A DNA stretch of 64,000 nt from Candidatus Acidiferrum sp. (GCA_041476465.1 JBGOTL010000001.1:25724-89723), one strand, 5' to 3'; positions 30,970 through 34,909 are shown, counted from the stretch's first letter. Notes: generated by a model not told the origin, from the letters alone. A program made the numbers and translations.

Positions 30970-31110
30970 GCAGACCTCCGACGTACCGTGGGCAGATGCT
31001 AGAGAATGCGCCGTGGGTTGTCAAGACGTGACGGGTAATCTACACTGAACATCTTTTTGGGATGCGGTGGTCATGGCATCCTAGTTGAAACACAAATCGA
31101 GGAGGCATGG

Positions 31111-31665
31111 ATGTCCGTTAAGCCAGACCGCTGGATCCGCCACATGTCGCTGGAGCACAAGATGATCGAGCCGTTCACGGACCGCCAGGTGCGTGAAGGC
31201 GTGATCAGCTATGGTTTGTCGTCTTACGGTTACGACATTCGCGTGGCGGATGAGTTCCGGATCTTTACGAATGTGAATTCGACCATCGTGGATCCAAAAC
31301 ATTTCGACCCGCGGTCTTTGGTGGACTACAAAGGCGACGTTTGCCTGATTCCTCCGAATTCGTTCGCGCTGGCGCGATCCGTTGAATATTTCCGGATTCC
31401 GCGCAATGTGCTGACCCTGTGTGTGGGGAAGTCCACCTACGCGCGGTGCGGAATCATCGTAAACGTGACGCCGTTCGAGCCGGAGTGGGAAGGCTTCGTC
31501 ACTCTGGAAATCAGCAACACCACGCCGCTGCCCGCGAAAATTTATGCCAACGAAGGATTGTGCCAGGTGGTGTTCTTTGAATCCAACGAAGATTGTGAAG
31601 TGAGTTACAAAGACAAGAAGGGGAAGTACCAGGCGCAGAGCGGTATCGTCCTGCCGCGACTGTAA
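31111..31665 (+). CDS. dcd: dCTP deaminase
   Basis: [35 protein letters not shown]; start moved to ATG 31111. Confidence 0.97.
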
Positions 31666-31685
31666 TCAGGACTCAAACAGGAAGG

Positions 31686-31720
31686 AAGGGGCAGAGCGGT
31701 TAGCCGCCCTTTTTCATTTT
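31686..31720 (+). terminator. Putative intrinsic terminator after dcd
   Basis: AAGGGGC...GCCCTTTT followed by a T-rich tract. Confidence 0.45.
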
Positions 31721-31737
31721 TTGCTGGGACAAAAATC

Positions 31738-32679
31738 CTAGGGAGCCGGCGTCTGAGCGAGTGGGTAGCCTCGTTCGCGCCAGGCTTGCAGCCCGCCCTG
31801 CAGGGGACGTATGCGTTTGATGCCTTGTTTCCTGAGGAGCAGCGCCACACGGGCGCTGGTGGCTTCGTTGGGTCAAGTGCAATAGAGAATGATTTCGCGG
31901 TCTTGCGGCAAGCGATCGTTCTTCTCCTGAAGTTCCTTGGCGTCCATGCGGAAGGCGCCTGGTATTGTCTCGGGGTCAGCTTCGAAATCCAAGGAGTGGC
32001 GAAGATCCACGATGACCAGCTCTTCGCCGGCGTCGATCTTTTCTTTTAATTCTTCCACGGTCATGCGAGAGATACGCAGTTCGCGGAGGAATCGCTGCCG
32101 CGCAATGAATTTCCATGCGATGTAAGCTAGCAGGCCGCCGATGAGGATCACCAGCAGCCAGCCGCCGAGGGCCGCGGCATGCTCCGCAACGCGTTCGATC
32201 TGCCCGCTGAAGGCGTAGCCGAGGCCGAGGAAGCTGAAAGCCCAGAGGAACGAACCAAGGACATCGAAAAGGAGAAAACGATTCAGCCGCATGTGAAAGA
32301 TTCCGGCAAGCGGCGGAGCGATAGTGCTGAGGCCCGGGAGAAACTTGGCGAAGAGCAGGGAACGAGCGCCCTGCTTCGCGAAAACCCCTTCCGTGCGCCG
32401 GACGCAGGAATCGGGTTCGAGCGAGATTCTGCAGAGTAACTGGAGAATCTTAATGCCCTTGGCGCGGCCGAGTTGATACCACAGCAAATCGGCGGTGATC
32501 GCCGCCAGAACGACGGCAAACAGGGAAGCAAAAAAACTCATCCGGCCTGTGCCGGCCAGCGCTCCAGCCGCGAGAAGCAGAGGAAGCGCGGGAACGGGGA
32601 GACCAAGCTGTTCCGCGAAGACCCACGCAAGCAAGACAACGTATCCATGATGGACTAGAAATTCCAGGGTGCTGTGCAT
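31738..32679 (-). CDS. DedA/VTT membrane protein fused to a rhodanese domain; probable selenoprotein (TGA at 31875-31873 read as Sec, residue 269 of 313)
   Basis: The ORF track stops at ...IILYCT*. The same frame continues PNEATSARVALLLRKQGIKRIRPLQGGLQAWRERGYPLAQTPAP* (TAG 31740-38), completing the rhodanese fold. Confidence 0.88.
31840..31858 (-). promoter_or_regulatory. Bacterial SECIS-like stem-loop
   Basis: CAGCGCC-CGUGU-GGCGCUG: perfect 7-bp stem, 5-nt loop with G in position 2, loop starts 21 nt after the UGA. Confidence 0.78.
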
Positions 32680-32704
32680 AGCGCGGACGAATCCTCCAGA
32701 AAGT

Positions 32705-33310
32705 TTACTTCGCGGCGAAAGGGGCAGTACGCCCCCAGCTCCCGCTCATAACAAATTCACGGATAGCCTTGCGGGAGCGAGGAGCTGATTCGCGCTCCTT
32801 GTAAGGCTCCGGCAGTGAAGCGGGATCGCCTGCATATCCAATGGTCATGACGGAGACAGGATCCCAGCCGTTGGGAATGGCAAAAACTTCGCGCGCTTTC
32901 TCGACGTCATATCCCGCCATCTGATGCACGAACAAACTGCGCGCGGTTGCTTCCAGGCTGAGTAGCATGGTGGCGGCCCCGACATCGGAGAATGCATTGC
33001 GGTTTGGCGTTCCGTTTTTATGAAAGGCAAGCTCGGCAACAGAAAGCACAAGCACGGGAGCCTGCCGGGCCCATTTGGCATTGAACTCCACGAGAATGCC
33101 AATCATCTTCTCATAGTTTTCCGGGTCGTCTTTTGTAGCGATGAGATAGGCCCACGGTTGTTCGTTGCTGCTTGACGGCGCCCAGCGCGCGGCTTCGAAC
33201 AAGCTGCGCAGAATCTCCGGCGATACGGGTTTTTCGGAGAAGGCCCGGGGGCTCCAGCGGTTGCGGATGAGATTGTGAACCGGAAATTCAGTTTCAGCCG
33301 GCTTTTGCAT
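32705..33310 (-). CDS. Nitroreductase family protein
   Basis: IRNRWSPRAFS, AARWAPSSSNEQPW, HQMAG, IGY, R.RK. Confidence 0.93.
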   Translation of the reverse strand: MQKPAETEFPVHNLIRNRWSPRAFSEKPVSPEILRSLFEAARWAPSSSNEQPWAYLIATKDDPENYEKMIGILVEFNAKWARQAPVLVLSVAELAFHKNGTPNRNAFSDVGAATMLLSLEATARSLFVHQMAGYDVEKAREVFAIPNGWDPVSVMTIGYAGDPASLPEPYKERESAPRSRKAIREFVMSGSWGRTAPFAAK

Positions 33311-33388
33311 GGTTTTGCCTCGCTGCTTTGGATGAAAAAATAGCCACGGGCGGTACGTGAAAACCCCCGCGACAAATGCGCGGACAGG

Positions 33389-33850
33389 TTATTCCGGTTC
33401 GCCCTGCTGCACTTCTTGCAGAAGTTCGGCGAGGACTTTCAAGCGCGCGGCGGTCATATGCCGGAACTGGCGCTTGTGAGCCTCGCGAACCGGCTGGTCG
33501 AGAGTTTTTAAAATGTCCAGGCCTTGCGCGGTAATGCGCGTCTTGACGACCCGGCGATCATCGGTCTGGCGCTCCCGGGTGATCCAGCCGCGCTTTTCCA
33601 TGCGGTCGAGGAGACGCGTCATATCCGGGTCATGCGAGATCATCCGTTCGATGATGCTGCGGCAGGGGAGACCCTGGGGTTCCGCGCCGCGGAGGATACG
33701 CAGTACGTTGTATTGTGCGCCGGTAAGGCCGCGGGCCTTCAGCAGTTGATCGGCTTTCTGGCCGAGCGCGTTTGCCGTTCGCAGCAAGGCGACAAAGATT
33801 TCGTTTTCCAGGGAGGGAGCGAAGCCGGCATGGGGGGAGCGCGAACGCAT
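33389..33850 (-). CDS. MarR family transcriptional regulator
   Basis: LTGAQYNVLRILRGA, PDMTRLLDRME.RGWI.R.R...DRRVV winged helix. Confidence 0.95.
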   Translation of the reverse strand: MRSRSPHAGFAPSLENEIFVALLRTANALGQKADQLLKARGLTGAQYNVLRILRGAEPQGLPCRSIIERMISHDPDMTRLLDRMEKRGWITRERQTDDRRVVKTRITAQGLDILKTLDQPVREAHKRQFRHMTAARLKVLAELLQEVQQGEPE

Positions 33851-33856
33851 GGCTCG

Positions 33857-33885
33857 ACAATAGTCGTTATAACGATTAGTGTCAA
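33857..33885 (-). promoter_or_regulatory. marR promoter with palindromic operator; leaderless start
   Basis: TTGACA(33885-80)-N17-TATTGT(33862-57), 6 nt, then ATG; perfect palindrome TCGTTATAACGA (33864-75) in the spacer. Confidence 0.8.
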
Positions 33886-33995
33886 GAGGAAAATACCGGG
33901 ACTTCCGTGAGGCCCCCGGCGCGGGTCCGCCACTCCCGGGAAACGAGCGGGCCTCAAAAAAACACGTTTCGCGCGAGCGGAAGATTCTCAGGCGC

Positions 33996-34745
33996 TCAGG
34001 ATTTGCGCAGCGGGCGGAGGCAAATTTCGCTAAGAAAACTCTGCGCGCCCTGGGTGACCACCATGGCCACGGCGTGCGCGACGTCCGCGGCCCTCAACAC
34101 CTTTGCGGGGTCTTTGCGGCTGCTACCGCTAAACTCCGTGGCCACGCTGCCGGGGCAGATGACACTAACGCGAATACCATGCTCGCGCAGGTCCTCGGCC
34201 ATGCACGCCGAGAGGCCCTGGACGCCCCACTTGGAAGCGCAGTAGATTCCGCCGCCAGCAAAGGTATTTTTCCCCGCGAGGGAGCTGATATTGATGATGT
34301 CGCCGCCGCCACGGCGGATCATCCCGGGGGCGACGGCGCGGGAGACGAGGAAAACACTCTTCAAATTCGTGTTGAGAACACGATCCCAATCGGCTTCATT
34401 TTTTTCATGTGCCGGGCCAAACAAGCCAACGCCGGCATTATTGACGAGGATGGAGATGGGGCCGAGGGCGGCTTCGGTTTTCGTGACCAGCTCCGCGACG
34501 TCAGCGGAACGTGTGACGTCGGCAATTTGCGAAAACACACGCGCCCCGGATTTTTCCAATTCCCTGGCACAAACGTTAAGCGCTGCATGATCGCGGCCGC
34601 AGATGGCCACGGAAGCCCCAAGCGACGCCAGCCGCGAGGCGATGGCGCGGCCGATGCCGCGGCTTCCCCCGGTGACCAGGGCGACGGAATTCGCCAAAGG
34701 CTTTGGCCCCCTTGTTTCTGTATTTGCCGGGTTTATTTGCGCCAT
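33996..34745 (-). CDS. SDR family oxidoreductase
   Basis: TGGSRGIG, LVNNAG, NISS, YCASK; start moved to ATG 34745. Confidence 0.95.
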   Translation of the reverse strand: MAQINPANTETRGPKPLANSVALVTGGSRGIGRAIASRLASLGASVAICGRDHAALNVCARELEKSGARVFSQIADVTRSADVAELVTKTEAALGPISILVNNAGVGLFGPAHEKNEADWDRVLNTNLKSVFLVSRAVAPGMIRRGGGDIINISSLAGKNTFAGGGIYCASKWGVQGLSACMAEDLREHGIRVSVICPGSVATEFSGSSRKDPAKVLRAADVAHAVAMVVTQGAQSFLSEICLRPLRKS

Positions 34746-34909
34746 CAGAAATCTCCTCGTACAGGCCACTCTTTTTGTGCGACACTCATCTTAGCATTAA
34801 GGATTACGCGCGACTTGGTATCCCCGGAGGTGCACGGGGGATAGAAAAAGAAGCTGACGCGCCGAGGGAAGCAATCCGTAAAATACATACTTTGACGCCG
34901 GGTAACACC

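Follow-up and report, generated by a model that had tools for sequence, protein, structure and literature searches.

A stretch of 64,000 nucleotides (nt; hereafter the window) from a soil acidobacterium of the Ca. Acidoferrum/Acidiferrum clade (subdivision 2 Acidobacteriota) contains, on the minus strand between positions 31738 and 33885, three co-oriented genes encoding a MarR-type regulator (marR), a nitroreductase-family flavin mononucleotide (FMN) oxidoreductase (ntr) and a fusion of a DedA/VTT membrane domain with a C-terminal rhodanese domain (dedA~rhd). The fusion gene carries an in-frame TGA that very probably encodes selenocysteine (Sec), placed in what is probably the catalytic position of the rhodanese domain. 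Taken together, we read the locus as an autorepressed MarR operon with a leaderless first gene that produces a Sec-containing DedA-rhodanese protein, likely in defence against quinones or other electrophiles, and we give this reading as a whole a somewhat better than even chance of being right. A first-pass annotation made from the sequence had proposed this gene order, the shared orientation and gaps of 78 nt (marR-ntr) and 25 nt (ntr-dedA~rhd), all of which agree exactly with the gene coordinates. The features of the locus, in the order of transcription, are the following.

33857-33885, minus strand: sigma-70-type promoter, with -35 TTGACA at 33885-33880, a 17-nt spacer and -10 TATTGT at 33862-33857.
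33861-33878, strandless: putative MarR operator, the 18-bp palindrome TAATCGTTATAACGACTA with one mismatch and a perfect 12-bp core at 33864-33875.
33389-33850, minus strand: marR, 153 amino acids (aa), PF01047 46.5 bits, start predicted to be leaderless.
33311-33388, minus strand: marR-ntr spacer of 78 nt, the junction after yceI loss, with two weak T-run hairpins and a GAGG ribosome-binding site.
32705-33310, minus strand: ntr, nitroreductase-family FMN oxidoreductase, 201 aa, no cysteine, PF00881 77.9 bits.
31738-32679, minus strand: dedA~rhd, DedA/VTT domain with C-terminal rhodanese, 313 aa with UGA as Sec, identified with Pfam and NCBIfam.
32215-32595, minus strand: VTT/DedA domain, residues 29-155, PF09335 55.4 bits.
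32404-32433, minus strand: codons of the Cys pair C83/C92, in a Lys/Arg-rich loop that is presumably cytoplasmic.
31774-32061, minus strand: rhodanese domain, residues 207-302, PF00581 50.8 bits, with the loop C267-T-U269-PNEATS.
31873-31875, minus strand: in-frame UGA, residue 269, read as Sec.
31840-31858, minus strand: hairpin CAGCGCC-CGUGU-GGCGCUG, resembling a selenocysteine insertion sequence (SECIS), 14 nt past the UGA and inside the SARVAL codons.

The TGA at residue 269 is the only one in the frame of the fusion gene and lies in the motif ILYCT-U-PNEATSA. That it stands for Sec had been suggested by the first-pass annotation, and this is now supported by Cys alignment, by the hairpin, by the open frame and by the Sec machinery of the genome, which comprises a tRNA-Sec (63.8 bits, called SeC(tca) by ARAGORN), SelA (468.7 bits), SelB (SelB-wing_3, 73.2 bits) and SelD (354.1 bits). 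In full-length homologs, which measure 313-332 aa, a Cys stands exactly at the position of residue 269 (LYCTCPNEATSA), and dozens of separate protein clusters of 268 aa stop at LYCT. The locus was compared with that of its relatives in 20 extended loci and 80 species-level loci, all from one genus-level clade. A single TGA in an otherwise open frame is found in 26 of the 30 best loci of the genus, and among the 80 species-level genomes the codon for residue 269 is TGA in 66 and a Cys codon in 14, with the frame past the TGA intact and conserved. The six core pairs of the hairpin are kept whole in 61 of 63 distinct Sec-form sequences, including at synonymous codon positions, and its loop reads CGUGU in 61 of these 63, the closing pair being C:G in 29 and G:C in 16. 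Among the 14 Cys forms, conversely, one retains all seven hairpin pairs, nine different loops occur, and the residues encoded by the hairpin drift as well (R to Q, H or K; V to L, T or M).

Sec forms are also found at greater distance. In those of other acidobacterial families (51-61% identity) a TGA occupies the position of residue 269, and the loop is CGGGU, AGUAU or AGUCU where read, retaining the G. Moreover, two paralog lineages (35-37% identity) have the TGA, L155 (G033:C20) within LYCT-U-PRDATSARVA and L154 (G053:C1) within LYCT-U-RNEATS; a hairpin core AGCGCC-CGUGU-GGCGC follows the TGA of L155, and neither lineage has marR or ntr nearby. The tree requires at least 3 changes between Sec and Cys. 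Loss of the Sec trait was considered as an origin of the Cys forms and rejected, since SelA is still present in 4 of the 4 Cys-form genomes tested. Rfam gave no match over the region at E up to 1, bacterial SECIS elements having no matching model there. Recoding of the UGA via a SECIS hairpin appears as well shown as sequence analysis allows.

The extent of the family was surveyed in protein clusters, by searching 1.84 billion representatives and examining the best 150 at 50% identity. Of these, 47 end exactly at ..YC[T/S/A] and 84 are full-length, 70 of the latter with a Cys at the position in question. The 47 short members most probably are gene calls that were cut at a probable Sec codon, which would amount to a systematic mis-annotation of the family in public databases.

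In the rhodanese domain, an ungapped alignment to 6mxv pairs U269 with the catalytic Cys of that structure (CGGGFRS versus UPNEATS). Aligned to 6pfz with gaps, however, the domain has C267 instead of U269 at the catalytic position, so that the placement of the selenocysteine at this position is only probable. A fold search with an AlphaFold2 model of the whole fusion (mean predicted local distance difference test score 85, predicted template modelling score 0.64) matched rhodanese domains only, including those of YgaP (5hbo, 2mrm), and a PDB sequence search with the DedA part remained without hits at E up to 1. In E. coli, ygaP is encoded beside the gene of a small winged-helix repressor, and the YgaV-YgaP arrangement resembles that of the window in having a repressor gene followed by a gene for an inner-membrane-tethered cytoplasmic rhodanese. 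YgaV-YgaP consists, however, of an ArsR-type regulator and a rhodanese with a two-helix anchor and a catalytic Cys, and it has no flavoenzyme, unlike the MarR, DedA, Sec and flavoenzyme of the window.

Two selenoprotein families are related to the rhodanese part. The model NF041203 (rhodanese_LYCAU) matches the domain with 97.4 bits over model positions 16-124 of 126, against a curated cut-off of 115; because of this sub-cut-off score and the fusion to DedA, we consider the domain a relative and not a member of that family. Proteins of the NF041203 type, named 'rhodanese-like form 3, CxU' in a 2026 review (PMC13188914), share with the window's protein a single rhodanese domain, the LYC-x-U motif, Sec at the position of the catalytic Cys and the coexistence of Sec and Cys versions. 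They differ from it in their motif (LYCAU versus LYCTU), in being stand-alone proteins of approximately 126 aa whereas the window's domain is the C-terminal part of a DedA membrane protein, and in that NCBI annotation truncates the window-type protein. Likewise, TsoB (rhodanese/DsbD fusion-like, NF045694; PMC13188914) combines a Sec rhodanese with a polytopic membrane domain bearing redox cysteines; its membrane domain, however, is DsbD-like and it contains two Sec in a UxxxxU motif, and NF045694 matches the rhodanese part of the window's protein weakly (E 7.6e-4, 17.7 bits versus a cut-off of 805). Of 251 Acidobacteriota genomes sampled, 44 contain LYCxU-like rhodanese domains. Most of these have an in-frame TGA, and their architectures comprise stand-alone domains, DedA fusions and longer frames of 511-671 aa (e.g. 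L168, L169, L173, L179, L187).

The DedA part bears a Cys pair, C83 and C92 (CRISLEPDSC; LC[KR]IS[LI]EPDSC in the clade), which the first-pass annotation had singled out as additional and which proved invariant in 80 of 80 clade orthologs. It is present in 121 of 131 diverse cluster representatives and absent from E. coli YqjA. The pair is located within a stretch containing nine Lys/Arg (residues 72-112), and six Lys/Arg follow the last membrane helix (residues 190-205); by the positive-inside rule, these counts would place the Cys pair as well as the rhodanese domain on the cytoplasmic side. A strict coupling of the DedA Cys pair to CxC/CxU was tried on the 131 representatives and rejected, the coupling not being strict and amounting to a weak hint only; one paralog lacks both the catalytic residue and the second DedA Cys.

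Fusions of DedA (COG0586) to rhodanese have been noted before, and the rhodanese connection was called 'unclear' (Todor et al. 2023, PMC10127716). They have the same PF09335 plus PF00581 architecture as the window's protein, and the Cys forms of the clade bear the NCBI name 'DedA family protein/thiosulfate sulfurtransferase GlpE'. Differences are that selenocysteine is unmentioned in PMC10127716 and that, of the four charged residues on which YqjA/YghB depend, two are missing from the window's protein. The first-pass annotation knew of no description of the whole combination. In the literature searched this is true of the operon and of the fusion with Sec: no paper joining DedA, rhodanese and selenocysteine was found, and a mention of DedA/VTT was not found in the selenoproteome review and the deep-Sep paper. 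It is not true of the parts, as both are known: rhodanese selenoproteins of the CxU type (NF041203; PMC13188914) and fusions of DedA to rhodanese (PMC10127716).

Upstream of marR, TTGACA-17-TATTGT is the sole sigma-70-like site in 31500-34200 (10 of 12 matches; shuffled sequences gave a mean of 0.8 hits per region). The 18-mer TAATCGTTATAACGACTA, one mismatch from a perfect palindrome, occupies the spacer between -35 and -10 and overlaps the first two -10 bases, and its perfect 12-bp core TCGTTATAACGA is unique in the window, with 0.05 occurrences expected. In the open frame of marR no start codon other than the ATG at 33850 is available. This ATG comes 6 nt past the -10 element, which leaves no space for a Shine-Dalgarno sequence. 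These three elements, the near-consensus promoter, the palindrome filling its spacer and the leaderless start, were all recognised in the first-pass annotation, and the comparison with relatives bears them out: the same layout was found upstream of marR in 20 relatives and subsequently in 71 species-level genomes of the Ca. Acidoferrum clade, whose MarR proteins are 60-76% identical to that of the window. In these 71 genomes TTGACA-17-TATxxT is kept, the clade consensus is cTCTTGACAaTAGTCGTTATAACGACTATxxT and the start lies mostly 5-7 nt past the -10. The consensus of the operator, TAGTCGTTATAACGACTA, is a perfect 18-bp palindrome with the core GTCGT-N4-ACGAC, from which the 71 genomes deviate by 0-5 mismatches.

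With an operator inside its own promoter, the locus has the appearance of a MarR unit under autorepression, and from the usual behaviour of the MarR family we infer that MarR would bind the 18-bp palindrome. Genome-wide, a match to GTCGTTATAACGAC with at most one mismatch occurs only at marR, and hits with two mismatches (5 per strand) are fewer than those of a reversed-pattern control (12), so that there is no evidence for a wider regulon. Apart from its neatly conserved leaderless start, the regulation of marR is ordinary for a MarR unit.

The regulator itself scores above the cut-off of PF01047 (46.5 versus 24.6 bits) and matches PF12802 with 37.2 bits. Its nearest structure is 3u2r, an uncharacterised 'Regulatory protein MarR' (E 6e-28), and its best NCBIfam models, HpaR, OhrR and MarR, all remain far under their cut-offs. 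The sole cysteine, to which the first-pass annotation had drawn attention, is Cys63 (codon 33662-33664) at the start of the helix-turn-helix. This residue is invariant in 73 of 73 orthologs amid varying flanks (P, A, L, G or S before and R, S, K, N or G after it), and 3u2r has Ala at its position. Such a pattern fits, without proving, a one-cysteine sensor of oxidants or electrophiles. The OhrR/peroxide-sensing subfamily was rejected as an assignment: an N-terminal Cys (around residue 15) is lacking and NF052638 gives 43.5 bits versus a cut-off of 200. A second MarR paralog, 45% identical to the MarR of the operon, is encoded at G000 contig C5:28047-28430.

The second gene, ntr, belongs to the nitroreductase superfamily by its PF00881 score, and its best solved relatives are 2fre, an NAD(P)H-flavin oxidoreductase (E 8e-29), followed by 4eo3, a peroxiredoxin-nitroreductase fusion. 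The kinship to 4eo3 would suit a flavoenzyme whose task is to re-reduce a thiol/selenol centre, which we regard as only a lead. No characterised equivalog is reached (RutE-like 56 versus 152, NfsB 27 versus 227 and BluB 45 versus 150 bits).

In 20 of 20 extended loci and in most of the 80 species-level loci, marR lies upstream and ntr directly before dedA~rhd. The usual form of the operon is marR-yceI-ntr-dedA~rhd (approximately 60 of 80 loci); an architecture with wrbA occurs in 5 of 80, all in one subclade, the window's form marR-ntr-dedA~rhd is found in 4 of 80, and most of the remaining loci end at a contig edge. The genes which the first-pass annotation had combined into a three-gene unit are indeed linked, but three genes represent a derived, reduced form, the common one containing yceI and sometimes wrbA. 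YceI matches PF04264 with 175 bits and has a signal peptide; WrbA scores 314-330 bits, above the cut-offs of models for type IV NAD(P)H:quinone oxidoreductase. By tblastn at E<1e-5 neither yceI nor wrbA was found elsewhere in the window's genome, indicating, within its 95% completeness, that they were lost and not relocated. The tree implies at least 3-4 independent losses of yceI and a single gain of wrbA, with marR, ntr and dedA~rhd remaining together.

The intergenic spacers of the relatives measure 28-75 nt, are unstructured and carry AAGGAG ribosome-binding sites. The 78-nt spacer of the window folds to -25.6 kcal/mol, whereas the marR-yceI spacers of the relatives are unstructured; it contains a terminator-like site (33360-33344) and two T-run hairpins, and at this junction transcription might be partially terminated or attenuated, in a way peculiar to the window's genome. 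Beside the operon, a gene for an SDR-family oxidoreductase (33996-34769, minus strand) lies co-oriented and directly upstream of marR, and a dCTP deaminase gene (dcd; 31057-31665, plus strand) lies convergently downstream of the fusion gene. The SDR gene has its own divergent intergenic region, and a weak T-run hairpin (33974-33962) precedes the marR promoter; as the interval between SDR and marR holds only this hairpin, read-through from SDR into the operon is possible.

Based on these observations we propose the following mechanism. A MarR dimer would bind the 18-bp palindrome between -35 and -10 and block RNA polymerase until an inducer frees it, either an oxidant or electrophile acting at Cys63 or a bound aromatic ligand. 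The messenger RNA would begin at or next to the marR ATG and run into the gene for the FMN reductase and then into that for the DedA-family membrane protein, whose cytoplasmic C-terminal rhodanese would carry selenocysteine at the catalytic position (C267-x-U269), the UGA being recoded via the hairpin 14 nt downstream. The ancestral operon would also have encoded a secreted YceI, a lipocalin-like lipid or polyisoprenoid binder whose gene was lost in the window, and the operon of one subclade adds WrbA as NAD(P)H:quinone oxidoreductase. The flavoenzyme, or both flavoenzymes, may reduce the incoming compound or re-reduce the Cys-Sec centre, and the Sec-rhodanese together with C83/C92 could form a membrane-bound site of thiol/selenol redox chemistry or sulfur transfer.

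The role that we favour for this module is a defence directed at quinones or at other hydrophobic, redox-active electrophiles, although we put its probability at slightly below one half. We favour it because the genes that join the operon encode a quinone reductase and a lipocalin-like protein that binds hydrophobic or isoprenoid compounds, and because the control of nitroreductases and quinone reductases by MarR-type repressors is established in Firmicutes (PMC6798810). WrbA and YceI point towards quinones and hydrophobic electrophiles more than towards selenite or tellurite. MhqR, YodB and QsrR of B. subtilis and S. aureus are quinone-induced and have a 9-9-bp inverted repeat at their own promoter (PMC6798810); as in our proposal, they are autoregulated from the first gene of the operon and control nitroreductases and quinone reductases. 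They come from another phylum, however, and the proteins are not close in sequence. Furthermore, the conserved Cys of the window's MarR is located at residue 63 in the helix-turn-helix, whereas that of YodB, QsrR and OhrR is N-terminal, and the effectors include a DedA-Sec-rhodanese and YceI instead of dioxygenases.

The main rival to this role, and the direction preferred in the first-pass annotation, is that the module handles reactive sulfur or selenium: Cys63 would sense persulfide, polysulfide or selenite, the Sec-rhodanese would accept sulfane sulfur or selenium, the DedA part would move such species across the membrane and the flavoenzyme would supply the electrons. Rhodanese is a sulfur-transfer fold with Sec here at the catalytic position, the fold search matched the membrane-anchored rhodanese YgaP, the DedA Cys pair is conserved, TsoB (NF045694) is an established selenoprotein that joins a rhodanese to a membrane thiol-disulfide domain, and earlier work connected a DedA protein with the uptake of selenite or resistance to it (Ledgham et al. 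2005, as cited in PMC10127716). The genes joining the operon are, however, wrbA and yceI and not those for a sulfide:quinone reductase, a persulfide dioxygenase, TusA or sulfite exporters, the neighbourhood contains no further sulfur or selenium genes and the active-site loop is acidic or neutral. We consider the handling of sulfur or selenium rather unlikely. The DedA part might also be an undecaprenyl-phosphate flippase like YghB, YqjA and UptA, in an operon for the recycling of an envelope carrier in which the rhodanese is only regulatory. YceI proteins bind polyisoprenoids, which counts for such a role, as does the equivalent of YqjA E39 being kept (E23) and that of R130 being a Lys (K112). 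The VTT domain is present, and DedA-rhodanese fusions of the COG0586 type have been noted (PMC10127716). Conversely, D51 falls in a deletion and the phosphate-binding R136 is replaced (S118), with Ser, Gly or Asn at this position in 80 of 80 orthologs, and UptA models reach 41-53 bits versus cut-offs of 250-300. With the scores this far under the cut-offs and two of the four essential charges of the class gone, we did not file the fusion as an undecaprenyl-phosphate flippase and consider this role highly improbable.

A number of observations weigh against our reading of the locus as a quinone or electrophile defence operon. Outside the genus-level clade no linkage of marR or ntr to dedA~rhd was found: dedA~rhd stands alone in L177 (same family, other genus), in the sister family G041 (64% identity, Sec form), in five other acidobacterial families and in the paralogs. 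Within the clade the flanks are syntenic too, with SDR upstream in 66 of 80 loci and dcd downstream in 58-75 of 80, and the terminator-like hairpins of the marR-ntr spacer make read-through into ntr a little less certain in the window. At the protein level, ntr is no equivalog of NfsA, NfsB or RutE, the rhodanese loop UPNEATS is without the basic residues typical of thiosulfate sulfurtransferases, the Cys pair and CxC/CxU do not strictly co-occur across the wider family, and MhqR, a MarR-type quinone sensor and the closest functional analogue, uses no thiol switch (PMC6798810). Synteny across Acidobacteria, which the first-pass annotation had envisaged, thus exists within one genus-level clade and gives way to a solitary gene outside it; as the linkage is confined to one clade whose flanks are conserved as well, it is weaker evidence for a functional module. 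The adjacency could then simply be inherited, with MarR acting chiefly on its own gene or on an unknown target, and with two unrelated housekeeping genes, ntr and dedA~rhd, lying downstream by chance, in line with a neighbourhood that is syntenic from SDR to dcd, with dedA~rhd alone elsewhere and with hairpins after marR in the window. We find this improbable, because the unit contains no second promoter-like site, the ntr-dedA~rhd gap is 25 nt, the spacers of the relatives are short and unstructured with ribosome-binding sites, and wrbA was inserted and yceI lost without parting marR from ntr and dedA~rhd. What speaks for a functional unit is that there is only one promoter, that the gaps are short, that terminators are lacking in relatives and that the block survives gene gain and loss; independent recurrence is not part of the argument. 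The most elementary objection, that the TGA is a true stop leaving a truncated DedA protein and a decaying rhodanese remnant, or a sequencing error, agrees with gene callers and NCBI annotation, which end the protein at residue 268. It is contradicted by the same TGA in 66 of 80 species-level genomes with a conserved frame downstream, by a hairpin that is kept in Sec forms and decays in Cys forms, by the Cys of the homologs, by the full Sec machinery of the genome and by 47 diverse clusters ending at the same residue, and has hardly any probability left.

The part of the operon that deserves attention is the Sec-bearing DedA-rhodanese fusion, the function of which is made testable by its regulated context. 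NCBI annotation and gene callers stop at the UGA and reduce the protein to a 'VTT domain-containing protein'; with approximately a third of the sampled family (47 of 150) looking truncated in the same way, a sizeable group of selenoproteins of soil Acidobacteriota would be hidden. Moreover, the conserved leaderless start of marR offers a clean case for leaderless translation in Acidobacteriota. DedA proteins are an active field, in which undecaprenyl-phosphate flippases and lipid scramblases have been recognised and the meaning of the rhodanese fusions has been called unclear. A more speculative possibility, which we rate as unlikely, is that the DedA-Sec-rhodanese is an unrecognised and widespread membrane redox device, in which the Cys-x-Sec centre would swap electrons or sulfane sulfur with C83/C92, the flavoenzyme would recharge it and the substrate would be a membrane-soluble compound, for example a polysulfide, an isoprenoid quinone or a xenobiotic that resembles a quinone. 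The conserved promoter and operator and the one-cysteine MarR provide experimental handles, and the regulated operon with a flavin reductase, often YceI and sometimes WrbA, turns the fusion into a testable hypothesis of quinone/electrophile or sulfur stress. If true, the redox device would be the first functional assignment for DedA-rhodanese fusions and would present DedA as a redox enzyme or carrier, not as a lipid flippase.

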